A stretch of 64,000 nt of DNA from Pseudomonadota bacterium (lineage in GTDB: Bacteria; Desulfobacterota; Anaeroferrophillalia; Anaeroferrophillales; Tharpellaceae), in contig DSCM01000102.1 of assembly GCA_011049115.1 (NCBI GenBank), positions 174 through 64,173 on the forward strand, read 5' to 3'. Below are positions 1-36,657 of the stretch, piece by piece; positions within the stretch are counted from its first letter, which is position 1, and each line of letters begins with the position of its first letter. The notes beneath the pieces are model-generated. The model did not search any database. It was not told where the DNA came from and saw only the letters and a list, made by a program, of their open reading frames with translations. The translations under genes were made by a program, and so were the position numbers.

Positions 1-86
1 AACAACAAAAAAGGTGGCGAGTCAATATTGATGGCCTGCCAATACAGACAACTCACTGACATATTACCCGTTGGCGCCGCCCGATA

Positions 87-1325
87 TCATCCTTCAGGGA
101 TAAAGCAGCTGTCTTTAATCTTAGCTGCGAGATTGTCAGCCAGCAACTCCAGCTTTTTTTTGATTATGTTGTCAGGTGGACCCTGAGCGACAACCTGAGG
201 TGAAACAACCTGAGCTTTCAAATCTTCAAGATACCGGTTGATCTTTGGAGTTATGTCGACCTTCCAGCTGTTTTGGGTGAAAGTTGCCACCGGATAACCG
301 TTTTTCTTTTTGCCTCTAAAGAGCATCAGGTAATACTCAAGACGCGGGTAGATATTTGTATCATAAGTCGGCCCACCAAAAACAATCCCCCCGGCATTGA
401 GCATTTCTCCTAATACCTGGCCTGGCTCGGCTAACGCGGCGTCAAAGTATTTGACTGTAAAACCATTATGCTCCAAACGATGTTTAACGATGGCTCCCAT
501 TTGATGCGTATTACCCCACATTGAACCGACAACCATTACGACCTTATCCTGCTTGTCATTGCGAGCCCACTCCTGATAACGACTGATAATCGACATCGGA
601 TTGCTGCGATATACCGGCCCGTGCGATGGGCAAAGGATATTTATACCCATACCGCCCTTAACCCACTTATCGATGGCTTTGATCACGTGCCCCAAATAAG
701 AGGCGACAATAGTTCCCAGATAGCGTTTTGCTTCAGGCCAGTAGCTTGCGAGATCAATTTCGTCGTCAAACAGACCTCTGTCGAGAGCTCCAAAACCACC
801 GAAAGCATCACAGGGGAAAAGCACTTTATCCTCTACCAAATAGCTAAACATGGTATCTGGCCAGTGCAGCCAAGGATAACCGAGAAAACGCAAGGTTCGT
901 CCTCCGAGATCAAGACTGTCGCCGTCACCGACCGCTCTCACCCGCTTCCCCTCTCCGTAAAATTGTTCAAGAAAAACTTTACCTTTTCCAGAAGCGATGA
1001 TTTCGGCTTGCGGACAGGCTTTGTAAATGATTGGGATAATACCGGAATGATCCGGTTCAAGATGATTATGGACGATGTAGTCAATTTCGGTCAGAGGCAT
1101 TATCTGCTCAATTTTTTTTATAAATGTTTCCGCGAAACCGTTGCGTGAAAGCTCAATCAAAGCCGTTTTGTTTTTGCCTTGGACCAGGTAAGCATTGTAG
1201 CTTATTCCGTGCGGCAGGGCCCACAGGCCTTCGAAAAGAGGATTGAAATGATCATTGACACCGACCCACCAGACTCCGTCGATGATCTTGACTGCTTTAT
1301 CGGAATTACTTTCAGCCGTAGCCAT
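87..1325 (-). CDS. Flavodiiron protein (FprA / rubredoxin-oxygen oxidoreductase type; metallo-beta-lactamase-like diiron domain plus flavodoxin domain)
   Basis: Translation has the HNHLEPDHSG diiron motif and a C-terminal flavodoxin-like domain. The ORF track starts at 1430, but that hydrophobic N-terminal extension is implausible. I take MATAES at 1325, which is preceded by GGAGGAAAC. Confidence 0.8.
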   Translation of the reverse strand: MATAESNSDKAVKIIDGVWWVGVNDHFNPLFEGLWALPHGISYNAYLVQGKNKTALIELSRNGFAETFIKKIEQIMPLTEIDYIVHNHLEPDHSGIIPIIYKACPQAEIIASGKGKVFLEQFYGEGKRVRAVGDGDSLDLGGRTLRFLGYPWLHWPDTMFSYLVEDKVLFPCDAFGGFGALDRGLFDDEIDLASYWPEAKRYLGTIVASYLGHVIKAIDKWVKGGMGINILCPSHGPVYRSNPMSIISRYQEWARNDKQDKVVMVVGSMWGNTHQMGAIVKHRLEHNGFTVKYFDAALAEPGQVLGEMLNAGGIVFGGPTYDTNIYPRLEYYLMLFRGKKKNGYPVATFTQNSWKVDITPKINRYLEDLKAQVVSPQVVAQGPPDNIIKKKLELLADNLAAKIKDSCFIPEG

Positions 1326-1491
1326 TGTTTCCTCCAAGTCCGGCCGGCCCGGACGACAAAAAAGTTGAATGAACAATGATAAGGGGATAAAAATTATCTG
1401 AATAATAAAGTAAATAAAATCGGTTGTCAACCGCGGTACTTGAAAAAATATTTACACCGGAATCTTCGCGGAGCTCATGTCCGACCAAAAA

Positions 1492-2361
1492 TTACGCTGA
1501 AACCCCTACCTCTTTTCCGGCTTCAAGGTCAAGAAACAAAGCTCCCTTACGGACTCTGGTTTGATATTTTACCATGCCCTTATCATCTACTTCACGGGCT
1601 ATCCTTTCATAAACCATTTGCCTTTCATCAGAGCTCAGAGAACGTTGAAATTCGAGATGCCAGATTATATGTTCAACCGTGTTTTCAAGGCTGTCATAAC
1701 GTTTCCAAACCGGGTGCAGATAAGAAATCTCGGGAGAATGACCAAGGGCATAGAGATAGTTGAAAATAACGGTCACATCCATAGCATCCCACCGGTAGGT
1801 TTCATCGTAAACCATTTTGTAGCAGGTTTGAAAAAGAGGATTGTCTCTGATCCCGGCCCAATAAACAAGGACGACAAAGCGGCGGCTCATGGCCAGAAGA
1901 CGATCAATATTTTCTAATTCATTTAAAATCGGACTCATTGAGACAAAAACCGTATCATACTGACAAGCGGGATTAAACCCATAAAAATCATGACATATAA
2001 CCGTTAAGTTCTCCGTCTTTTCCGCTTCTTTTCTAGCTATGACCCGTGCGATCATTCTTTCTGAAACATCCACGGCAGTGACTTGACGGCAAATTGCGGC
2101 AAAGTCAAAGCAATGAGTTCCCGGACCGCAGGCTATATCAATCAGTTCTGTTTGCGGGCTTAACATTCGATGGGCCAACATTTTTTCTTTGATCCACAGC
2201 TGCTCGGCCAGGAAAGCCGCATCATTCTCAAAACTATGGTAATGCCCCGCAATTTGATCCCATTTTCCCCCGGTGGCTACCTTGCTGCGCTTCAGGGAAC
2301 GTTTACGGGAAAGAACGTAGTCACGCCAGAATTGCGGGGTCAGCAAAAGTTCCTCACTCAC
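1492..2361 (-). CDS. Class I SAM-dependent methyltransferase
   Basis: IDIACGPGTH glycine-rich SAM-binding motif. Same direction as the flavodiiron gene and upstream of it. Confidence 0.75.
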   Translation of the reverse strand: MSEELLLTPQFWRDYVLSRKRSLKRSKVATGGKWDQIAGHYHSFENDAAFLAEQLWIKEKMLAHRMLSPQTELIDIACGPGTHCFDFAAICRQVTAVDVSERMIARVIARKEAEKTENLTVICHDFYGFNPACQYDTVFVSMSPILNELENIDRLLAMSRRFVVLVYWAGIRDNPLFQTCYKMVYDETYRWDAMDVTVIFNYLYALGHSPEISYLHPVWKRYDSLENTVEHIIWHLEFQRSLSSDERQMVYERIAREVDDKGMVKYQTRVRKGALFLDLEAGKEVGVSA

Positions 2362-2589
2362 AAGCTTATTTCCTCCTGATGATATAATTTACGATCCATG
2401 CAGGTAAAAAGAGCATTCGCTCTCCCCTCTCCTTACTTCGGAAAATCAAATCCGCCAGAGATATCAGATTGACAATTTCCTTGAATGGTACGGTCAACTA
2501 TGATAGTTACACCTGCCAATTACAGAACACGGATATGCGCGCCGCAGGTTTGTGCCGGAGATATAAGCTTTTACAGGAGCATTGACAAG

Positions 2590-3624
2590 ATGAAAAATGA
2601 TTATCGATTTTTACGAGCCTGCCGACGTCAGGATGTTGACTGCACCCCGGTCTGGATGATGCGTCAGGCTGGGCGTTACCTGCCGGAATATCGTGCTTTA
2701 CGTGAAAAACACTCTTTTTGGGAAATGTGCAAAACCCCGGAGCTTGCGGTCGAAGTTACCCTGCAACCGCTGCGCCGCATGGAGCTGGACGCTGCCATCC
2801 TGTTTTCCGATATTCTGGTTCCTCTTGAACCCATGGGCTCAGCCATTGAATTTCACGAAGGTCGAGGACCGGTGGTGGAACGACCGATTCGTTCGGCTGC
2901 AGACCTGAAAACCCTAAAAGTCGTTGCGGCGGAAGAAACAGTTCCATTCGTGATGGAGGCTATCCGAATCCTGCGGCGTGAACTTGACGGCAAGGTGCCT
3001 CTGATCGGCTTTTCCGGGGCCCCCTTTACCTTAGCCAGCTATCTGGTTGAGGGCGGTGGCTCAAAACAGTATCAGCACATCAAAACCATGATGTATGTAA
3101 ACCCTCAAGTTTACCATCGACTGATGGAAATGATTACGCAAACCGTGATTTCCTATCTTAAGGCCCAGATTCTAGCTGGGGCTCAGGCCGTGCAGCTTTT
3201 CGACAGTTGGGTCGGTTGTCTTGGATCTTTTGACTATCAAGAATACGTCTTCCCCTACAACCAAAAAATTTTTCAGGCGCTTGCGGAATTTGATATCCCC
3301 AAAATCCACTTTGCCAACCAAGCCTCGACCCTTCTTAAACAGGTGGTTGCCGCCGGCGGAGATGTCATTGGTCTGGACTGGCGCCAAGACATTTCTTCGG
3401 CCTGGGAAATCATTGGTCCGGAATGCGGGGTTCAGGGAAATCTCGAACCGCTTGTCCTGTTTGCTCCGATTCCTGAAATTCGCAGACGAGTAAGAATGGT
3501 TCTCGATCAGGCCGCCAATCGCAACGGTCACATTTTCAATCTTGGCCACGGCATCCTGCCAACTACTCCGATTGACCACGCCAAGGCCATGATTGATGCT
3601 GTACATGAGTTTTCCGTTCGCTAA
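2590..3624 (+). CDS. hemE: Uroporphyrinogen decarboxylase
   Basis: Signature TPVWMMRQAGRYLPEYR near the N-terminus and full-length URO-D fold. Start taken at MKNDYRF (2590, RBS AGGAGC), not at the ORF-track 2485. Confidence 0.9.
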   Translation: MKNDYRFLRACRRQDVDCTPVWMMRQAGRYLPEYRALREKHSFWEMCKTPELAVEVTLQPLRRMELDAAILFSDILVPLEPMGSAIEFHEGRGPVVERPIRSAADLKTLKVVAAEETVPFVMEAIRILRRELDGKVPLIGFSGAPFTLASYLVEGGGSKQYQHIKTMMYVNPQVYHRLMEMITQTVISYLKAQILAGAQAVQLFDSWVGCLGSFDYQEYVFPYNQKIFQALAEFDIPKIHFANQASTLLKQVVAAGGDVIGLDWRQDISSAWEIIGPECGVQGNLEPLVLFAPIPEIRRRVRMVLDQAANRNGHIFNLGHGILPTTPIDHAKAMIDAVHEFSVR

Positions 3625-3656
3625 ACTAGATTAAACTCAACTACGACGGTAGGGGC

Positions 3657-5057
3657 ATGAAGTATATCAGTACCCGGGGCGGAATCGCTCCGATCTCCTT
3701 TAATCAGGCGGTAATGATGGGGCTCGCCAGTGATGGCGGGCTACTTTTGCCGAAGGATATTCCAGTCTTTTCTCCGGCTCAAATGGACGCACTCACGACC
3801 CTGTCCTACAACGAGCTGGCTTATACCATCTTTGCTCGTTTCATTGATGATGATATTCCCGCCGCCGACCTGCGTGCCTTGATCGCCAAAAGTTATTCGA
3901 GCTTTGCTGCAACCGAAATTGTCCCTTTAAAAAAAGTGGGGGAATTTTATATTCAGGAGCTTTTTCACGGCCCCACCTTGGCTTTCAAGGATATCGCTCT
4001 ACAGTTTCTCGGCAATCTTTTCGAATATCTGCTTCGTCGTGAAAAAAATCACCTCAATATCCTCGGAGCAACCTCAGGAGATACCGGCAGCGCCGCGATT
4101 CATGGCCTACGGGGTAAGGAAAACATTAATATTTTCATTCTGTACCCATACGGCAAGGTCAGTCCCGTACAGGAAAAGCAGATGACTTCGGTCCTTGACG
4201 ACAATGTTTTCAATCTGGCGATAGAGGGAAATTTTGATGATGGACAAAGGATAGTCAAGGAGCTTTTCGCCGATCTTGAGTTCAAACAACGCTACCATCT
4301 CGGGGCCGTAAATTCAATCAACTGGGCTCGGATCATGGCTCAGATTGTTTATTATTTCAGCGCATGGACGCAGCTTTCAGCCAAAGATCGGAATGATTTC
4401 ACGGTGGTTGTGCCGACCGGCAACTTCGGCAATATTTTTGCGGGCTGGGTTGCAAAGCAAATGGGATTGCCAATTAAGAAATTGATCCTGGCAACCAACG
4501 CCAATGACATTCTTTATCGTTTCATCACCAGCGGAAGCTATCAGGTCGACCAGGTAGTGAGCACGCTGAGCCCGTCAATGGATATTCAGCGGGCCAGTAA
4601 TTTTGAACGCTATCTCTATTTTTTGGTGAATCGAGATCCAGAAGTCCTGAAAAAAATGATGTCTGACTTTACCGGTTTCGGAAAACTTAAGATAAGTGCT
4701 GAGCAGTTTGAGTTTCTGCGTCGGGATTTTGCCGCATCCCGGGTTGATGACGCCATGACTCTGGCGACAATCAAACAGGTCTGGCAGGAAAAGGGTTATA
4801 TTCTTGACCCGCATACAGCGACAGGTGTCTGTGCCGCCCGTCAGTATCTTGAGAGCGGACAGACAAGCTCGGGGATAGTCTGTCTGGCGACCGCCCATCC
4901 CGCTAAATTCCCGGATGCGGTCAAAAACGCGATCGGAAAAATGCCTCCATCGCCTGCAAGCATTGCCTCACTGGACGAACTTCCCTGTCGTTATAACCGT
5001 GTTGCCGCCGAGACCGACGTTGTAAAAAACTACGTCATGGAAAAACTCGGCAGTTGA
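3657..5057 (+). CDS. thrC: Threonine synthase
   Basis: MKYISTRGG N-terminus and the PLP lysine motif FKDIALQF. Length 466 aa, typical of long-form ThrC. Confidence 0.9.
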   Translation: MKYISTRGGIAPISFNQAVMMGLASDGGLLLPKDIPVFSPAQMDALTTLSYNELAYTIFARFIDDDIPAADLRALIAKSYSSFAATEIVPLKKVGEFYIQELFHGPTLAFKDIALQFLGNLFEYLLRREKNHLNILGATSGDTGSAAIHGLRGKENINIFILYPYGKVSPVQEKQMTSVLDDNVFNLAIEGNFDDGQRIVKELFADLEFKQRYHLGAVNSINWARIMAQIVYYFSAWTQLSAKDRNDFTVVVPTGNFGNIFAGWVAKQMGLPIKKLILATNANDILYRFITSGSYQVDQVVSTLSPSMDIQRASNFERYLYFLVNRDPEVLKKMMSDFTGFGKLKISAEQFEFLRRDFAASRVDDAMTLATIKQVWQEKGYILDPHTATGVCAARQYLESGQTSSGIVCLATAHPAKFPDAVKNAIGKMPPSPASIASLDELPCRYNRVAAETDVVKNYVMEKLGS

Positions 5058-15247: not shown

Positions 15248-16636
15248 TCAGATTAAGCCCGCCGCATGCAAGGCCGCAAGATCAGGAGCGTTACAGAACG
15301 AGCATGGATCAAGCTCAATGCTTCGACCATCGTGCGTAGCAAGAGAAAGAGGAACGAAGACCCCGAAAGCCCCCCCCCCTGGACCTTCCAGTACGAACGT
15401 TCGTCCCAGAACATCAACTTCTTCCGGTTTGACCCCAGCCTTCAGCAGACCTTTTTCCAGGCTCCAGGTAAAAGCCTGGTTAACCCTGGTATAAATCGCT
15501 CGCTTGACGAAATCGTAGAGATAATAACGAACAGCGGAAATCTGCTCCGGATAAAGCCCGGCCCGTTTCAGTTCCGGCCCCCACTTTTGCCAGGGGTTAT
15601 CAACCTCGATCACCGTACTGGAAAAACTTTCCAGTGAGGCCGCGGGGATCAAACTGCCGTCATCCAGGTCAAGACAACGACCATCCTTGAGCAGGGCCAC
15701 GGCTTTCATTTGCAGAAAGCTATATGATTCCCGCAGATTTTCGATACGTAAAGGAATTATTTGCTGCGGCGAGCGCTCCTTTTCTCCTTCCTTGCGCCAG
15801 GCCTGATGGAGTTGGGTATATTTATTTCGATCAAGCTTCAATTTGGGAAGAACTGTCGTTTTTGTCATCTTTGTCTTTTTTGTCAGAGACGACAAAGGCT
15901 GTTTCTCCATGTTCATGGAATTCGTATCTTTTTCGGCTGTTTTCGGTGAAACCTGGTCCTGAGAGGAGCGGATTTTTTGAAGTTCATCTTCCTGTAAAGT
16001 TGGAAAGTTTTTTTTCACCAAACTTTCAGCATAACTTCGCAGCTGCTGCCGGTCTGATTCCGATAAAAGCTGAACTGCGGTCTTACCTGAGTCAGCTGCA
16101 ACATGGTTACGGCTATGCAGGTCGGTGACGATTTCAGCCTTATTCTCTAGGATTTCCGGTTCCGGATCGAGGACATCATCTTGCGAAAGAACAGCCGAAG
16201 ATTCCGTTTCAACCTGGTTCTCCGTCTCACCCACCAACTCTTCACCGGCGACAAACAGCGAAGTATCCTCGCCCTTGCTTTCAGGTTTTACCTCTGGAGC
16301 TGCCAACGCGGCTGTCGCAACCAGATCTTTCGACTCTGTTTTTTCGATTTTTCCCGTTGGTGGCAAGGGATCGGATTGAGCCTCTGTGGGAAGATCCGCT
16401 TCCGGTTCGAATGCCTGAGTTTCCACCGGCGACCCCTTCTTTTTCAGCGCAACGGGTGCCCGCTCAGCGGCCATTTTTTCGGGAGTAAACAGATGTCGAA
16501 CAATGACTACGGCCTCATCGACGGGCCGGTGCAACTGAAAAAGAAGACCGCAAACCCCGATAAAAACCAGAAAAAATACCAGGCTGACGCGGCCGGTTTT
16601 AAGTCTGCCATTGTTGTATACAAAAAATGAGTGCAT
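15248..16636 (-). CDS. Hypothetical membrane-anchored protein (N-terminal transmembrane helix, long acidic/Pro-rich linker, about 200-aa C-terminal globular domain)
   Basis: RBS AAGGA. The topology is TonB-like, but no TonB C-terminal signature is recognisable. Confidence 0.55.
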   Translation of the reverse strand: MHSFFVYNNGRLKTGRVSLVFFLVFIGVCGLLFQLHRPVDEAVVIVRHLFTPEKMAAERAPVALKKKGSPVETQAFEPEADLPTEAQSDPLPPTGKIEKTESKDLVATAALAAPEVKPESKGEDTSLFVAGEELVGETENQVETESSAVLSQDDVLDPEPEILENKAEIVTDLHSRNHVAADSGKTAVQLLSESDRQQLRSYAESLVKKNFPTLQEDELQKIRSSQDQVSPKTAEKDTNSMNMEKQPLSSLTKKTKMTKTTVLPKLKLDRNKYTQLHQAWRKEGEKERSPQQIIPLRIENLRESYSFLQMKAVALLKDGRCLDLDDGSLIPAASLESFSSTVIEVDNPWQKWGPELKRAGLYPEQISAVRYYLYDFVKRAIYTRVNQAFTWSLEKGLLKAGVKPEEVDVLGRTFVLEGPGGGAFGVFVPLSLATHDGRSIELDPCSFCNAPDLAALHAAGLI

Positions 16637-30656: not shown

Positions 30657-31817
30657 ATGCTGCTGCCGATCGGAGACTCCCCCAACCCTGAAAATTATAC
30701 CCCGTGGGCAACCTGGCTGCTGATTGCGGCCAATTTTGCCGTTTATATCTTCATCTCCTATCCCCTGACGCAACAGCCGGCGAATCTGTACGATCCGGCC
30801 CTGCAGGAATATCTTCGTTTTCTGACGCCAAGGTTACCGCATAACCTGCCTCTGACCGCCATGCTGCAGCGCATCTCGGCCTACGAGGTCTTTGTCTTCG
30901 CCAATGGCTATAAAGCCGGAGCTCCGCAGCTTGAAGATCTCTTCTTTTCTTTGTTTCTGCACGGCAGTTTTCTCCATCTGGCCGGCAATATGCTTTTCTT
31001 ATGGATCTACGGCGACAACGTCGAGCATCGTCTCGGTCACCTGCCCTATTTTCTTCTTTACTTGTTTTGCGGAATTGCGGCGACCCTCTTTTTCTCCATC
31101 TTCACCCAGACCTCGATGACCCCCTTGATTGGAGCCTCGGGCGCGATCTCGGGGGTTTTGGGTTTTTACTTTATTTTCTTTCCCCGGAATCAAATCAAGG
31201 TCTTTCTTGCCTTGTTCCCGTTTTTTTTTAATGTTGTCAGACTTCCGGCGAGACTGGTGCTGGGATTTTACCTGCTGGTTGACAACGTGCTTCCGTTTCT
31301 CATGGCGAGCAGCGGAGGCGTTGCCTATGGAGCCCATATCGGTGGTTTTATCAGCGGTCTGGCCGGCGCCCTCATCTGGAACCGGAAATGGAAAATGCAC
31401 GCCTATCAAGACTTTCGAAAATCCCGAGAAAAAACCTTTCCACTTCCCTTTGAACGGCTGCGCGAAGCCCTGGCTCTACAGGATCGGGATTCCGCCATGA
31501 CGGTCCTGCCCCTGCTTGCCCCCAGCGACCTGAACTCGCTCAACGCCCAGGAAACCAGTTTATTGGCTTCCTGGGTACGCCAGGACGGACATCAGCAAAG
31601 CGCCGACCTGCTGCTCCGTAGTTTTGTCAAAACTCATGCCGGAAGTTCTGATCTGGCTCTGATCTTTCTGGATTTGGGGAAAATCCGTTTTGCGGCAGGC
31701 GAGCTGACCGCAGCCGCCTATTATCTGCATGAAGCACTGGAATCAGCCACGGACCCGAAAACCGCGAACACCGCCCACCAACTCCTGGCAGAAATCGAGC
31801 ACCTTCAGAACAGGTAA
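30657..31817 (+). CDS. Rhomboid-family intramembrane serine protease with C-terminal soluble (TPR-like) extension
   Basis: GASGAISGVLG (catalytic Ser) and AHIGGFISG (catalytic His) with six transmembrane helices. Confidence 0.75.
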   Translation: MLLPIGDSPNPENYTPWATWLLIAANFAVYIFISYPLTQQPANLYDPALQEYLRFLTPRLPHNLPLTAMLQRISAYEVFVFANGYKAGAPQLEDLFFSLFLHGSFLHLAGNMLFLWIYGDNVEHRLGHLPYFLLYLFCGIAATLFFSIFTQTSMTPLIGASGAISGVLGFYFIFFPRNQIKVFLALFPFFFNVVRLPARLVLGFYLLVDNVLPFLMASSGGVAYGAHIGGFISGLAGALIWNRKWKMHAYQDFRKSREKTFPLPFERLREALALQDRDSAMTVLPLLAPSDLNSLNAQETSLLASWVRQDGHQQSADLLLRSFVKTHAGSSDLALIFLDLGKIRFAAGELTAAAYYLHEALESATDPKTANTAHQLLAEIEHLQNR

Positions 31818-32638
31818 AACAGGGCCTGGGCAAAGGCCCAGGCCAGAATCAGCAACGAGATAATCACCACGACGGCGCAAGTTTGCCGAATGAACATCCC
31901 TGCCTGGCGTCGTTCCTGATAACCCAGCAAAGCCGCCAAGCCAATTCCGGCCAACAGCCCGCCGCCATGCCCCCAGTTATTGATCGCCGGCAGAAAAAGA
32001 CCGATCAGAACCAAGCCGACAATCCAGCCGCGAACCTGCAGCACGACCAGCCGTCCAAACTCCCCGCCTCGACTTAGGCCGTAAAAAAGCAGGGCTCCGA
32101 TCAAACCGCAGAGAGAAGCTGAGGCCCCGATAGTCAGCATTACCCCGGCGAGACATGAAAGATAGAAACCGATGACGCCGCTGAGCAGGTAGATCAGCAA
32201 AAACCGATATAAACCGAAAATTTCAGCCGCCATTCTTCCCAACTGGTTGAGGGCAACCATATTAAACAGCAGATGCAGGAGGCTGCCATGCAGGAATGAC
32301 GCCGAAATCAAGCTCCACCAGCGGTGCAGATGAAAAAGCGGCATCGAACCGCTGGCGCCAACCAGCAGCAATGACTGGCTGCCGGGGGCCAGGAAACGCA
32401 GAGGATTATGCAATCCGTCAAACTGGAGGGGGGCCATCATCAGGGTCAGAAAATAGAACGCGACGTTGATAATGATCAACGGACGCACAATCTCGGCGGG
32501 AGTTGCACTCCAGCGTTGAAAGATATCGGGCAGATGCCGACCGGGATGTTTGAGACCACAAAAGGGACAAAAAAGCTCGTCGCGGTTGATGAGTTTACGG
32601 CAACCAGGACAAAGAATTGACTTCCGTTTTTTCTGCAA
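31805..32638 (-). CDS. Rhomboid-family intramembrane serine protease with N-terminal zinc-ribbon
   Basis: CPGCRKL...CPFCG zinc ribbon, VGASGSM and GHGGGLLAG motifs. The 3' end overlaps the convergent rhomboid gene by 13 nt. Confidence 0.75.
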   Translation of the reverse strand: MQKKRKSILCPGCRKLINRDELFCPFCGLKHPGRHLPDIFQRWSATPAEIVRPLIIINVAFYFLTLMMAPLQFDGLHNPLRFLAPGSQSLLLVGASGSMPLFHLHRWWSLISASFLHGSLLHLLFNMVALNQLGRMAAEIFGLYRFLLIYLLSGVIGFYLSCLAGVMLTIGASASLCGLIGALLFYGLSRGGEFGRLVVLQVRGWIVGLVLIGLFLPAINNWGHGGGLLAGIGLAALLGYQERRQAGMFIRQTCAVVVIISLLILAWAFAQALFYLF

Positions 32639-32952: not shown

Positions 32953-34020
32953 TTATTTTTTACCATAATTCTGATGATAAATCTCAACCATACTCAAAAA
33001 AGCAATGGTTATCAACGGTCCGAAAATAATTCCGAGAACACCGAAAGTGGCAAGCCCGCCAAAAATGGCGATAAAAATCAATAAAACATGAATTTTGACT
33101 CGGTCACCCACCATTTTAGGTTTGAACAGATACTCGACAAACAGTGAAAGAGAACCGAAAGAGAGCAGAAAAGCGATGCCCCGGCCGATTTCACCGGTCA
33201 GCAACAGATAAGTTCCGATCGGAATAAAAACCACTGAAATGCCGATAAACGGAATAAAGGCAACAATCGCCATGACCGTGCCCCAGAGAATCGGCGATTT
33301 GATCTCAAAAAAAGCCAGTCCGAAGCCCCCGACAATCCCTTGAATAATCGCTGCCACACCATTGCCAACTACCATGGCCACCGTCATGTCATTAAATTTC
33401 TGTAACAAAATCTCCTCCTGTTTATGGGGCAGAGGAGAGAGAGCCAACAGATAGGCCTTCACCCGGGGGGCTTCGAGCAGAAGAAAATAAACAAAAATGA
33501 TAAGGAAAATAAAATGCATTGAAAAATTCATCACCTGTCCGGCCATACTTCGAGTCCAATTATAAGCCCGCAAGCCGATATCCTTGCTCAACCGAATGAT
33601 ATCATTCTGGATGTCGGCAAGATCATAATTGATACCGAGATGATCCAGCAGATCGGTAAAACGGCCGACCTTGCTGGAATGAGCCGCAATCAGCTGGTTA
33701 AGGGTGTCAACCGTTAGTTCGCGGCGTAGATAGTTATAAAATTCCGCGACTTCGACGGACAGGGAACTGATCAGAAAAACCAGGGGAACGAAAATTCCCA
33801 TAAAAATTGCCAAGCAGATCAGACCTGAAGCCAGCCAGTTGCGGCCACCGCAAGGTCTAATCAGCTTCTGATAAGCCGGATAACACAAACCAACCATGAT
33901 CAGCGCCAGGATCAGTGTCGAGAAAAAAGGTTTGATCATCCACAGAAAAAGACCGACGGTTAATAAAAATGTCATAAAGAAAACAATCATTCTATAAACC
34001 GGAATTTTTTCTTTAATCAT
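32953..34020 (-). CDS. AI-2E family transporter (PerM/YdiK-like)
   Basis: Eight transmembrane segments and family-typical length and layout. Confidence 0.75.
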   Translation of the reverse strand: MIKEKIPVYRMIVFFMTFLLTVGLFLWMIKPFFSTLILALIMVGLCYPAYQKLIRPCGGRNWLASGLICLAIFMGIFVPLVFLISSLSVEVAEFYNYLRRELTVDTLNQLIAAHSSKVGRFTDLLDHLGINYDLADIQNDIIRLSKDIGLRAYNWTRSMAGQVMNFSMHFIFLIIFVYFLLLEAPRVKAYLLALSPLPHKQEEILLQKFNDMTVAMVVGNGVAAIIQGIVGGFGLAFFEIKSPILWGTVMAIVAFIPFIGISVVFIPIGTYLLLTGEIGRGIAFLLSFGSLSLFVEYLFKPKMVGDRVKIHVLLIFIAIFGGLATFGVLGIIFGPLITIAFLSMVEIYHQNYGKK

Positions 34021-34262
34021 TTCCCGATAACTCCTGGTAGTTAAACAACTGCGAAGAGCGCTTAAACCCCAGCCGGCGCCACGACTGAAAAACGCCGCAG
34101 AGATAGCACAATCAAAGGTTAAAAACCAGCTTTTGCTTGCCCGAATGTTCAGGAAAAATTTCTTGACTTAAGAAATGGAATGGTTTAGAGGAGACCATCC
34201 TGCCTTTCAGGTCTGATCTCGAAGAAGTATTTACACAATTTTAAGGATAGTCTAGTCTGATC

Positions 34263-34337
34263 ATGGTGCGCCCGGTTTCTCTGTCTTGCTTTTTTTGGTT
34301 TTATTTTAGCAATGATAAGGAGAGGTTTGCCCGGTAG
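34263..34337 (+). CDS. Aromatic-amino-acid attenuator leader peptide (MVRPVSLSCFFWFYFSNDKERFAR)
   Basis: A 24-codon ORF with the run F-F-W-F-Y-F (4 Phe, 1 Trp, 1 Tyr in six consecutive codons). It sits about 150 nt upstream of aroG-pheA and is followed by two intrinsic terminators. AAGGA lies 15 nt upstream. Confidence 0.5.
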   Translation: MVRPVSLSCFFWFYFSNDKERFAR

Positions 34338-34364
34338 AATTACGATTCACAGAAAATCGATACA

Positions 34365-34398
34365 AGCCGCAGGCAAACCCGCTGCGGCTTTTCTTTTA
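34365..34398 (+). terminator. Attenuator terminator 1 (8-bp GC-rich stem agccgcag/ctgcggct, 9-nt loop, then TTTCTTTT)
   Basis: Perfect stem plus a U-tract in a 5' leader with no upstream plus-strand gene. An alternative pairing of ggtttgcc (34325-34332) with ggcaaacc (34372-34379) could act as the antiterminator. Confidence 0.5.
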
Positions 34399-34433
34399 AG
34401 GGCCGTGGGAAATACTCTCCGGCCCTTTTTATT
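34399..34433 (+). terminator. Attenuator terminator 2 (agggccg/cggccct stem, then TTTTATT)
   Basis: Second hairpin plus U-tract, immediately after the first. Confidence 0.4.
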
Positions 34434-34483
34434 GGTTGATAGAAAATAAGAACTCAGCATTCAACGATTTAGGAGTCACAGCC

Positions 34484-35575
34484 ATGCTTAGTAACCAGAC
34501 CGATGATGTAAATATCCGTAGTTTCGAACCCCTGACCGATCCTAACAGCTTTAAACAGGAGCTACCGATGAGTTCCGCCAGTCGCGAGGTCGTCACCATT
34601 GGCCGTCAGAGAATTGCCGATATCCTGGCGCATCGCGACCCGCGCCTGCTGATGATTGTCGGACCGTGTTCAATTCATGATGAAAAGGCAGCCCTTGATT
34701 ACGCCGGACGCCTGGCCGAATTACAGCGTGAAGTAATTGACAGCATGCTTCTCGTCATGCGTGTCTATTTTGACAAACCGCGCACCACCATCGGCTGGAA
34801 AGGCCTGATTAACGACCCTTATATGAACGGCAGCTGCGACATGAATGAAGGCTTGCGCCGGGCGCGGCGCATCCTGCTCAGCATTACTGAAATGGGGCTG
34901 CCCACGGCAACCGAAATGCTTGACCCCATCAGCCCGCAGTATCTGGCCGGGTTGGTCTGCTGGTCGGCAATCGGCGCCCGGACCACGGAATCGCAGACCC
35001 ATAGAGAGATGGCCAGCGGACTCTCAATGCCGGTGGGCTTTAAAAATTGTACGGACGGTAGTCTGAGCAAGGCGATTCATGCTCTGGTCGCGGCCCGAAC
35101 CCCGCAGAGTTTCATCGGGATTGATCCAAACGGCAGAAGCTGTATTGTTTCTGCCGCCGGCAACCCTTGGACTCATATCGTCATGCGCGGCGGCCTGCGG
35201 CCCAATTATGACTCGGTAAGCATCGAGGAGGCTTGCCAGCAGCTGCGCCAGGCGGGCCTGGAAGAAACCATTATCGTCGATTGTTCGCACGGCAACTCCC
35301 GCAAAAAACCCGAGGTCCAGCAAACCGTTTTGCAAAATGTTCTGGGTCAGCGCCTCGAAGGCAATCAGGCCCTGGTAGGGATGATGCTGGAAAGCAATCT
35401 GTTTGCCGGCTGTCAACCCTGCCGGGAAGATTCAAATGAGCTGGAGTACGGGGTTTCGGTTACCGATGCCTGCATCTCCTGGGAAATGACGGCAGAACTT
35501 TTACGCTGGGCTCATCAGAGAATAACCCAGGCCGCAAAGGCCGCCTATATCAAATTCTCATCAATTGAGGAATAA
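34484..35575 (+). CDS. aroG: 3-deoxy-7-phosphoheptulonate (DAHP) synthase, class I (AroG/F/H type)
   Basis: Full-length class Ialpha DAHP synthase motifs (LLMIVGPCSIHD, KPRTT, GARTTESQ). Start at ATG 34484 (RBS AGGAGT), not at the ORF-track 34436. Confidence 0.85.
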   Translation: MLSNQTDDVNIRSFEPLTDPNSFKQELPMSSASREVVTIGRQRIADILAHRDPRLLMIVGPCSIHDEKAALDYAGRLAELQREVIDSMLLVMRVYFDKPRTTIGWKGLINDPYMNGSCDMNEGLRRARRILLSITEMGLPTATEMLDPISPQYLAGLVCWSAIGARTTESQTHREMASGLSMPVGFKNCTDGSLSKAIHALVAARTPQSFIGIDPNGRSCIVSAAGNPWTHIVMRGGLRPNYDSVSIEEACQQLRQAGLEETIIVDCSHGNSRKKPEVQQTVLQNVLGQRLEGNQALVGMMLESNLFAGCQPCREDSNELEYGVSVTDACISWEMTAELLRWAHQRITQAAKAAYIKFSSIEE

Positions 35576-35577
35576 GC

Positions 35578-36657
35578 ATGGAACTTGATTCATTGCGACA
35601 GGAAATCGATACTTTAGACCAGGAGATTCTCAGACTTATCAATCGCCGCCTGGAACTGGCCCGAAGAATCGGTAAACAGAAACAAAAAGAGGGTCTGACG
35701 ACCCTCAATAATGCCCGTGAAAGCCAGGTACTGCAAAACCTTGACCGGCTCAACCAGGGTCCACTGACTCAAAATGGCCTGCATTTGATTTTCAAGGAGA
35801 TCATGGCCGCCGCACGCGAGCTGCAAAACCCTCACCGGATCGCCTTTCTCGGCCCGGAGGCCTCATATACTCATCTTGCGGCCCTGGGGCACTTTGGCGG
35901 GGGCACAAGCACGATTTCACAAAACAATGTCGCCGAGGTTTTTCAAGCGGTGGAAAAAGGCAGCTGCCATTACGGGATGGTGCCGGTTGAAAATTCCATT
36001 GAGGGGGCGGTTAACCATACGCTGGATCTTTTTTTCAGTTCCGACCTGAAAATCTGCGCCGAACATTACCAGACTATCGCTCACGACCTGCTCGCAAAAA
36101 CAAACCTGCCCCTGGAAAAAATCGGCACGGTTTATTCGCATGCCCAGGCTTTCGCCCAATGCCGGCAGTGGCTTCGCCGCCATCTACCCGGAGCGGTCCT
36201 GATCGAATGCAGCAGCACAGCCGAAGCGGCCCGGCGCGCTGCCGCCGCAGGCGGTAGTAGCGCCGCGATTGCCGGAGCCGCCGCCGCAGGGCTTTACAAT
36301 CTCCAGGTTGTCGCCGCCCAAATTGAGGATCTCTCCGGCAACACCACCCGTTTTCTGGTTCTCGGCCAGAAAGACAGCCCACCTTCGGGACACGATAAGA
36401 CCTCTATTCTTTTTGTGACTCCTCACCTGCCCGGAGCCTTGTACCAAGTCCTGACCCCGATGGCGGAATATGGAGTCAATATGGTAAAACTAGAATCACG
36501 CCCCACCCGCAATGAAAAATGGAGTTATTTTTTTATTGCCGATTTCGAGGGGCACCGCCGGGACGAAAAAATTGCGGCAATGCTTGAGAGCACCAGGGGA
36601 ATTTGTCTCTTTATGAAAATCCTGGGTTCATATCCACGTTTTCCCGGACTTATTTAG
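35578..36657 (+). CDS. pheA: Bifunctional chorismate mutase / prephenate dehydratase
   Basis: N-terminal chorismate mutase helix (LDSLRQEIDTLDQEILRLINRRLELARRIG), prephenate dehydratase domain and C-terminal ACT domain. Confidence 0.9.
   Translation: MELDSLRQEIDTLDQEILRLINRRLELARRIGKQKQKEGLTTLNNARESQVLQNLDRLNQGPLTQNGLHLIFKEIMAAARELQNPHRIAFLGPEASYTHLAALGHFGGGTSTISQNNVAEVFQAVEKGSCHYGMVPVENSIEGAVNHTLDLFFSSDLKICAEHYQTIAHDLLAKTNLPLEKIGTVYSHAQAFAQCRQWLRRHLPGAVLIECSSTAEAARRAAAAGGSSAAIAGAAAAGLYNLQVVAAQIEDLSGNTTRFLVLGQKDSPPSGHDKTSILFVTPHLPGALYQVLTPMAEYGVNMVKLESRPTRNEKWSYFFIADFEGHRRDEKIAAMLESTRGICLFMKILGSYPRFPGLI

Follow-up and report, generated by a model that had tools for sequence, protein, structure and literature searches.

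A probable leader-peptide attenuator with two serial terminators upstream of a DAHP synthase-pheA operon in Desulfobacterota

The DNA analyzed here, a 64,000-nucleotide (nt) stretch of contig DSCM01000102.1 (assembly GCA_011049115.1, Desulfobacterota) that we refer to as the window, contains a 463-nt intergenic region between two divergent genes, one encoding an AI-2E-family transporter and the other a class I-alpha DAHP synthase. The latter is followed by pheA, encoding chorismate mutase/prephenate dehydratase (P-protein). An examination of these nucleotides without database searches (the sequence-only reading) had proposed that the intergenic region holds a ribosome-mediated attenuator of the two biosynthetic genes, composed of a 24-codon open reading frame (ORF) with the aromatic run FFWFYF and, behind it, two back-to-back hairpin-plus-U-tract terminators. 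All of these parts are present (Table 1): the ORF and its aromatic run can be read directly from the sequence, the two terminators, designated T1 and T2, lie where they had been proposed, and profile matches identify both genes. The name aroG, which we use for the DAHP synthase gene, is nominal only, because the gene scores under the AroG- and AroH-specific cut-offs. The domains CM_2, prephenate dehydratase (PDT) and ACT are annotated for pheA on a matching metagenome contig (ENA ERZ27245514).

Table 1. Features of the aroG-pheA leader region in the window and of two homologous loci (L008, L010). Segments 2 to 6 are the successive pairing strands of the leader RNA.
Feature	Coordinates	Strand	Details
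AI-2E-family transporter gene	32953-34020	minus	
Candidate sigma-70-type promoter	34163-34191	+	-35 TTGACT 34163-34168, 17-nt spacer, weak -10 TAGAGG 34186-34191
Shine-Dalgarno-like AAGGA of leader ORF	34243-34247	+	sequence; 15 nt 5' of ATG
Leader peptide ORF, 24 codons, MVRPVSLSCFFWFYFSNDKERFAR	34263-34337	+	ATG 34263, TAG 34335-34337; homologous ORFs in 33 loci
Regulatory codons TTT TTT TGG TTT TAT TTT (FFWFYF), proposed ribosome stall site	34290-34307	+	sequence
Segment 2, 5' strand of antiterminator, GGTTTGCCCGGT	34324-34335	+	ends at stop codon
Small spacer hairpin CGATT...AATCG inside antiterminator loop	34343-34359	+	folding
Terminator T1 (segments 3 and 4)	34364-34397	+	left arm 34364-34372, loop 34373-34381, right arm 34382-34390, U-tract TTTTCTTTT 34389-34397; core stem GCCGCAG 34366-34372 / CTGCGGC 34382-34388, extended by A-U pairs to 34364-34390
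Predicted 4:5 relay hairpin	34382-34408	+	T1 right arm and U-tract 34382-34392 with AA and T2 left arm 34398-34408
Terminator T2 (segments 5 and 6)	34399-34433	+	stem GGGCCG..CGGCCC 34400-34425, U-tract TTTTTATT 34426-34433, dG -16.0
Shine-Dalgarno AGGAG of DAHP synthase gene	34471-34475	+	sequence
DAHP synthase class I-alpha ("aroG"), first regulated gene	34484-35575	+	NF009395 507 bits, TIGR00034 456 bits
pheA, second operon gene	35578-36657	+	NF008865 260 bits and chorismate mutase domain matches
L008 leader, Tyr-only, MAHIADKAYRYYYCYYYTCGLSAAP	L008:2827-2904		Y7, F0, W0; operon aroG-tyrA
L008 tyrA (CM_2 and prephenate dehydrogenase)	L008:4124-5308		
L010 leader, adjacent WW	L010:2822-2902		..NAWWYYF..; operon aroG-trpE
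L010 trpE	L010:4035-5615		

The aromatic run of the leader ORF, to which a fifth Phe codon at 34326-34328 is added downstream, is not a composition effect: runs of at least six aromatic codons occur twice in the six frames of the window, compared with 0.03 expected from Markov-1 simulated sequence. The second of these runs (WYFFWF, 16564-16581, minus strand) was considered as a leader and rejected as an out-of-frame artefact within the coding sequence 15248-16636, where it overlies the N-terminal transmembrane segment in an alternative frame. When mini-ORFs with at least five aromatic residues in seven were required to be followed by a terminator, 34263-34337 was the only one found in the window.

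The sequence-only reading had suggested that orthologous aroG upstream regions be searched for similar mini-ORFs, and such mini-ORFs are conserved there. DAHP synthase scans of genome and metagenome collections yielded 160 loci, to which the criterion of at least five aromatic residues in seven was applied. A mini-ORF was present upstream in 19 of the 23 loci with an AroG at least 59% identical to that of the window (one of the four exceptions is without upstream sequence), and five further mini-ORFs were found at 55-58% AroG identity, in Desulfobacula, Desulfobacter and Desulfotignum. The approximately 135 other loci (Gammaproteobacteria, Betaproteobacteria, Verrucomicrobia and others) gave one weak chance match only. 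A protein search and contig look-ups added nine leaders, seven of them from the clade of the window (73-92% identity) and the other two from the cultured species Desulfococcus multivorans (locus L172; strain DSM 2059, CP015381, about 2,206,050-2,206,300) and Desulfosarcina ovata. This brings the total to 33 homologous leaders, each lying 5' of an orthologous DAHP synthase gene in a genome of Desulfobacterales type. In every one of them, a start codon opens an ORF that contains a run of 6-9 aromatic codons in frame and whose stop codon adjoins the conserved segment 2; a terminator follows. The genes further upstream vary (AI-2E transporter, methyltransferase, porin, thiolase), and the leader is therefore linked to aroG rather than to the neighbourhood.

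Two sets of loci in this survey depart from the common arrangement. Locus L163 (positions 1-4068), a member of the window clade with 79% AroG identity, keeps a full F-rich leader with T1 and T2, has different upstream neighbours, and carries a phosphate acetyltransferase-like gene after aroG instead of pheA. The leader is absent at L084:1-292, L004:2660-2989 and L096:2150-2480 (59-63% AroG identity); L084 and L004 share a common, different upstream region, and in L096 another coding region lies immediately before aroG, suggesting that the attenuator was lost or replaced in some lineages.

The 33 leaders are conserved in the manner of coding sequences that are read for their aromatic codons. 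The run regions hold 243 aromatic codons in the frame of the ORF; the two alternative frames give 70 and 80. T occupies the first position of 245 of the 266 codons, and T, A and G all occur at the second; it is therefore the aromatic class that is conserved and not a nucleotide motif. The stop codon lies -4 to +10 nt from the end of segment 2 in every locus, and the last stall codon lies 3-21 nt 5' of segment 2 (18 nt in the window). This spacing of stop and stall codons is the geometry that an attenuator needs. Most of the ORFs have a Shine-Dalgarno sequence, with AAGGA or GGAG 6-10 nt from the start codon outside the window clade and 11-15 nt from it within that clade. These features suggest that the leader ORF is translated and that ribosomes would stall on the aromatic run.

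Codon content also tracks operon content. Window-clade leaders, with five to eight Phe, one or two Tyr and one or two Trp codons, precede aroG-pheA, and mixed Phe/Tyr leaders (F3-6, Y2-6, W0-2) precede aroG-aroB, in some cases with pheA. The leader of L008 contains only Tyr among aromatic residues and is followed by aroG-tyrA, and that of L010, with two adjacent Trp codons, is followed by aroG-trpE. The window leader is weighted towards Phe and has a single conserved codon each for Trp and Tyr; that it senses all three amino acids, as suggested earlier, is no more than a possibility.

T1, present in all 33 leaders, overlaps an antiterminator. The sequence-only reading had proposed pairing of ggtttgcc, placed at 34325-34332, with ggcaaacc at 34372-34379. 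The partner was correctly located, but ggtttgcc lies at 34324-34331 and the helix is longer, comprising 12 bp between segment 2 (34324-34335) and 34366-34369 plus 34372-34379. Segment 3 is thus made up of nucleotides from the T1 left arm and loop (34366-34379). In folding calculations of the kind that the earlier reading had called for, the minimum free-energy (MFE) structure with segment 2 free (34321-34392) was the 2:3 antiterminator, at -21.4 kcal/mol, whereas T1 formed when segment 2 was masked (34350-34392), as it would be under a terminating ribosome; its energy is -12.5 kcal/mol for the core stem and -15.6 kcal/mol with the flanking A-U pairs. Alignment A1, of 24 leaders, shows 94% pairing and 16 compensatory cells for T1, a result that none of 500 shuffles equalled, although kinship among the sequences means that shuffle counts here are not probabilities. 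The antiterminator is 83.7% paired, compared with 33-45% when the strands are slid, with six compensatory cells: the window has TTTGCC/GGCAAA, most leaders TCTGCC/GGCAGA, and L085 TGCGCC/GGCGCA. The antiterminator shares alignment columns with the T1 left arm. T1 and the antiterminator are therefore mutually exclusive helices, and both are conserved. At the site of the small hairpin within the antiterminator loop, window-clade relatives have a different hairpin (for example GAGTT/AACTC in L001 and L169, identified by eye).

A consensus terminator scan flagged neither T1 nor T2, the loops of which exceed the 8-nt limit of the scan. The two terminators do not belong to the transporter gene, since that gene points away from them. 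T2 was also considered as a terminator for the opposite strand and rejected, as there is no minus-strand U-tract, the upstream gene is divergent, and the downstream gene runs in the same direction. Likewise rejected was an overlapping 45-codon ORF (34312-34449), translation of which might have melted T1 and T2; it has no Shine-Dalgarno sequence, and its ATG is absent in L001, which has AAAG at that position.

The region combines a translatable short ORF, a cluster of pathway codons, an intrinsic terminator, and a mutually exclusive antiterminator, the 5' strand of which would be covered by a ribosome at the stop codon. Because the arrangement is conserved in 33 loci, both helices are conserved with compensatory changes, the aromatic codons are in phase with a fixed stop position, and codon content matches the operon, we consider it probable (roughly 0.85) that the region is a ribosome-mediated, leader-peptide transcription attenuator of aroG-pheA, as the sequence-only reading had proposed. 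Transcription would start near 34198, downstream of the candidate promoter. A consensus promoter scan did not flag 34163-34191, its limits on the -10 hexamer being too strict; in 26 of the 33 loci, a TTGAC(A/T) with TAnnnn 17 nt behind it is found 42-116 nt 5' of the leader start codon. With Phe-, Trp- and Tyr-tRNAs charged, the ribosome translating the 24-codon leader would reach the stop at 34335 and cover segment 2, segments 3 and 4 would fold as T1, and RNA polymerase would be released at 34389-34397. Any polymerase that passed T1 would meet T2, free to form with segment 4 locked in T1. When aromatic aminoacyl-tRNA is scarce (mainly Phe, judging by codon content), the ribosome would stall on FFWFYF, leaving segment 2 free to pair with 34366-34379 and block T1.

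This antiterminator would leave T2 untouched, and here the earlier proposal was incomplete: the pairing would block T1 as proposed, but a further helix would be needed to open the way through T2. A candidate is the 4:5 hairpin, formed by the right arm and U-tract of T1 (34382-34392) with the left arm of T2 and the adjoining A-rich spacer. Its formation requires that T1 be unformed, and it would keep the left arm of T2 sequestered. With T1 blocked, the freed segment 4 would pair with 34398-34408, T2 would be delayed or prevented, and polymerase would read into aroG-pheA. The replete state would accordingly consist of 3:4 and 5:6, both terminators, and the starved state of 2:3 and 4:5, neither of them a terminator.

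T2 is present in 15 of the 33 leaders, and in all 15 the T1 right arm and U-tract are complementary to the A-rich spacer and T2 left arm. In an alignment used for the 4:5 counts (A2), this helix is 96% paired, compared with 45-59% when slid, with compensatory change at five pairs, and none of 500 shuffles equalled it. Its mean energy across the 15 leaders is -19.6 kcal/mol, compared with -18.3 kcal/mol for T2, and in 9 of the 15 loci its stability equals or exceeds that of T2. Cognate T1 and T2 pair better than non-cognate ones, whether scored as chimeric hairpins (p=0.0008), by the arms only (p=0.004), or without near-duplicates (p=0.019), and the control pairing 3:6 showed neither cognate preference (p=0.79) nor covariation. 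When segment 3 was made unavailable, the MFE structure of segments 4-6 was not T2 in 10 of the 15 loci, and the estimated barrier from 4:5 to T2 was 4-18 kcal/mol across loci and approximately 10 kcal/mol in the window. In a series of MFE structures for window transcripts of increasing length, 2:3 appeared first, and 2:3 together with 4:5 made up the MFE structure when the 3' end stood at 34410-34414. All links of the chain (2:3, 3:4, 4:5 and 5:6) are conserved, and segment 4 shows covariation with its neighbours on either side, segments 3 and 5.

An alternative is that attenuation acts at T1 only, with T2 an unregulated fail-safe or dampener that trims both states and the 4:5 complementarity a by-product of T2 having been copied from T1 together with a near-palindromic GC core. 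Several of the observations that favor this alternative also belong to a set of points that weigh against the attenuator we propose, to which the kinship of the sequences noted above must be added. In the window, 4:5 (-14.0 kcal/mol) is weaker than T2 (-16.0 kcal/mol) and is the weakest 4:5 helix of the family; the MFE structure of the complete transcript holds T2 even with 2:3 (-40.1 kcal/mol, compared with -32.6 kcal/mol for 2:3 and 4:5 before segment 6); and the near-palindromic CCGCGG core present in both stems inflates 4:5 pairing. Upstream, the naked window leader already holds the antiterminator in its MFE structure, 34263-34360 folds no better than shuffled sequence, the Shine-Dalgarno spacing of 15 nt is long, and a classical 1:2 anti-antiterminator or pause hairpin is unsupported in the window (duplex z-score +0.4).

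The last of these points sets the window apart from its relatives. In most of them a segment 1 (GCAGGCAGA) early in the ORF is complementary to segment 2, with a mean duplex energy of -25 and a mean z-score of -3.1; in the 5' part of the window ORF and its 5' untranslated region, none convincing was found, and in L001, L164 and L162 candidates lie 5' of the ATG, judged by eye only. The window ORF also contains a purine-rich, Shine-Dalgarno-like TAAGGAGAGG at 34316-34325, kept in the window clade as AAGGAGAGG or AAGGATAGG, which can pair with the pyrimidine-rich Phe-codon stretch upstream. It may represent this clade's 1:2 pairing or an internal ribosome pause site.

Attenuation at T1 only would further agree with the lower stability of T1 in leaders that have T2 (-15.5 compared with -18.5 kcal/mol, p=0.016), which also fits a back-up role, and with the outer stem of T2, which at 94.7% paired is invariant and hence uninformative. 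On the other hand, a constitutive T2 would serve no regulatory purpose, yet 15 of 33 divergent leaders have retained one. Moreover, 4:5 is covarying, often no weaker than T2, and specific to cognate pairs, while 3:6, which would be equally complementary had the hairpin been duplicated, is not. T2 as a plain copy of T1 was rejected on the strength of this negative control, which also argues that the shared CCGCGG core does not fully account for 4:5 pairing. We thus regard attenuation at T1 alone as possible but doubtful.

That 4:5 disarms T2 after a stall is, in our estimation, somewhat better than an even bet. The argument for the window is a kinetic one, because T2 is thermodynamically favored after segment 6 is complete; on the folding models, 4:5 may nevertheless outcompete T2 kinetically. 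In L162, a 92%-identical relative, 4:5 is instead the more stable helix (-20.9 compared with -15.3 kcal/mol). We incline, by a narrow measure, towards the broader view of a "domino" attenuator, in which one leader peptide would control serial terminators, the right arm and U-tract of T1 would be the antiterminator of T2, and a common scaffold would have been retuned to pheA, tyrA or trpE by swaps of Phe, Tyr and Trp codons.

A different use of the T1 right arm may exist in the loci of Desulfobacula, Desulfobacter and Desulfotignum, which are without T2 between T1 and the aroG start (L009:2933-2989, L010:2934-2989, L011 and L013). In these loci a GGCTGTTGGC-type segment downstream, just 5' of the CCTGCAAAGGAG ribosome-binding region that is common to L009-L011, is able to pair with the T1 right arm (-12 kcal/mol). 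This pairing may pass the signal on to translation initiation, in place of a second terminator.

The leader could also be an independent small gene, encoding a small RNA (sRNA) or small hydrophobic protein, that ends in its own tandem terminators, with another promoter serving aroG-pheA. A pair of strong terminators, one directly after the other, does resemble the end of a gene, and attenuator-derived sRNAs and functional leader peptides exist, as exemplified by rnTrpL and peTrpL in Sinorhizobium (PMC6614838, PMC7298713). However, the gap between T2 and the start codon of aroG is only approximately 50 nt, and a consensus scan found no promoter-like site there; the element always lies immediately 5' of aroG on the same strand, whatever is further upstream; and what is conserved is the aromatic class of the residues, together with the antiterminator that overlaps T1, and not the peptide sequence. 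We therefore consider a separate small gene highly improbable. A role in trans for the released leader RNA would be additional to attenuation. T-boxes are known in some delta-proteobacteria. Riboswitches are known there as well (PMC545781), but a translation-independent RNA switch (T-box, metabolite riboswitch or protein-binding leader) with a coincidental ORF is still less credible, given that no Rfam family reaches its threshold here or elsewhere in the window, that start codon, frame, stop position and codon phase are conserved, and that Phe, Tyr and Trp codons are exchanged at the level of class and follow the downstream branch of the pathway.

Elsewhere in the window, a rhomboid-family gene pair, 30657-31817 on the plus strand and 31805-32638 on the minus strand, is convergent with a 13-nt overlap.

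Leader-peptide attenuation is textbook knowledge in gamma-proteobacteria and barely documented in Desulfobacterota. If our reading is correct, many sulfate-reducer genomes can readily be annotated with a regulatory RNA and a small ORF 5' of a DAHP synthase gene, among them those of the cultured D. multivorans and D. ovata, in which the mechanism is testable. The family would also provide a natural series of Phe-, Tyr- and Trp-weighted leaders on one scaffold, arranged by downstream branch enzyme, that is useful for learning how sensitivity depends on how many regulatory codons there are and in what mix. For RNA engineers, terminators chained through a shared strand, such that one stall opens both, would be a design principle: under repression the domino would raise the efficiency of termination multiplicatively, at no cost to induced expression. 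Nothing known would be overturned.

The leaders do not correspond to a catalogued RNA family. Across the window, no Rfam family was detected at its gathering score, and at E values up to 10 within 33800-34800 the only match was a sub-threshold one to Phe_leader (RF01859; 17.6 bits, E=5, compared with a gathering score of 55), with no match to a T-box or riboswitch. Aromatic amino acid leaders go unmentioned in the delta-proteobacterial regulon paper of Rodionov 2004 (PMC545781) and the survey of Naville and Gautheret 2010 (PMC2965389). Desulfobacterium autotrophicum has been said, in one sentence of Gurvich et al. 2011, to "potentially" use pheL for regulating pheA (PMC3082878); presumably this leader, which we know from that mention, belongs to the same Desulfobacterales family, and the mention contains no structure, survey or terminator analysis. 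This passing sentence is the literature on the family that we found, among papers that did not include Vitreschak et al. 2004 (FEMS Microbiol Lett). The family, absent from Rfam, is well supported by its sequences as an uncatalogued variant of the textbook trp/phe/his leader mechanism.

Among well-studied systems, the pheL-pheA leader of E. coli and other gamma-proteobacteria, which is regulated by charged tRNA-Phe (PMC3082878), is similar in having a short ORF with a Phe run, a stop codon beside the antiterminator strand, and a terminator before the chorismate mutase/prephenate dehydratase gene. It has no sequence or structure homology to the leader in the window, which mixes Phe, Trp and Tyr codons, precedes a DAHP synthase gene and not pheA directly, and carries two terminators. 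The aroR leader of Corynebacterium glutamicum, reportedly the subject of a study by Neshat et al. 2014, is the only tested case we found of a mixed aromatic leader that controls a DAHP synthase operon, and we know of no tandem terminators in it. Attenuation by this leader (Phe-Tyr-Phe), located 5' of the DAHP synthase gene aroF, was shown experimentally, with the operon induced by Phe limitation and unaffected by Tyr availability (reviewed in PMC11802643). Compared by description, it differs in coming from an unrelated phylum and in having three regulatory codons rather than 6-9.

Terminators in series have been described in other leaders. In the rimP-leader of some Gammaproteobacteria, tandem terminators occur, the upstream one with its own putative antiterminator (PMC2965389), and no leader peptide or sensor is described; tandem THI riboswitches of Desulfovibrio likewise place terminators in series in one leader (PMC545781), each with its own sensor. 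In the leader described here, by contrast, a base-pairing relay from a single leader peptide would control both terminators. A comparable chain occurs in the his operon attenuator of Salmonella and E. coli. Its six segments, A to F, are said to pair as A:B, C:D and E:F or alternatively as B:C and D:E (Johnston and co-workers, 1980). A ribosome stall near the 5' end acts on the distal terminator by way of an intermediate helix, and only E:F is a terminator. By sequence, the aroG leader likewise forms a row of five or more segments in which each can pair with the one before or the one after it. Unlike in the his leader, 3:4 and 5:6 would both be terminators, termination at T1 and at T2 being predicted from their hairpins and U-tracts, and the 4:5 helix that may connect them would be formed with the U-tract of T1 itself, paired to an A-tract.

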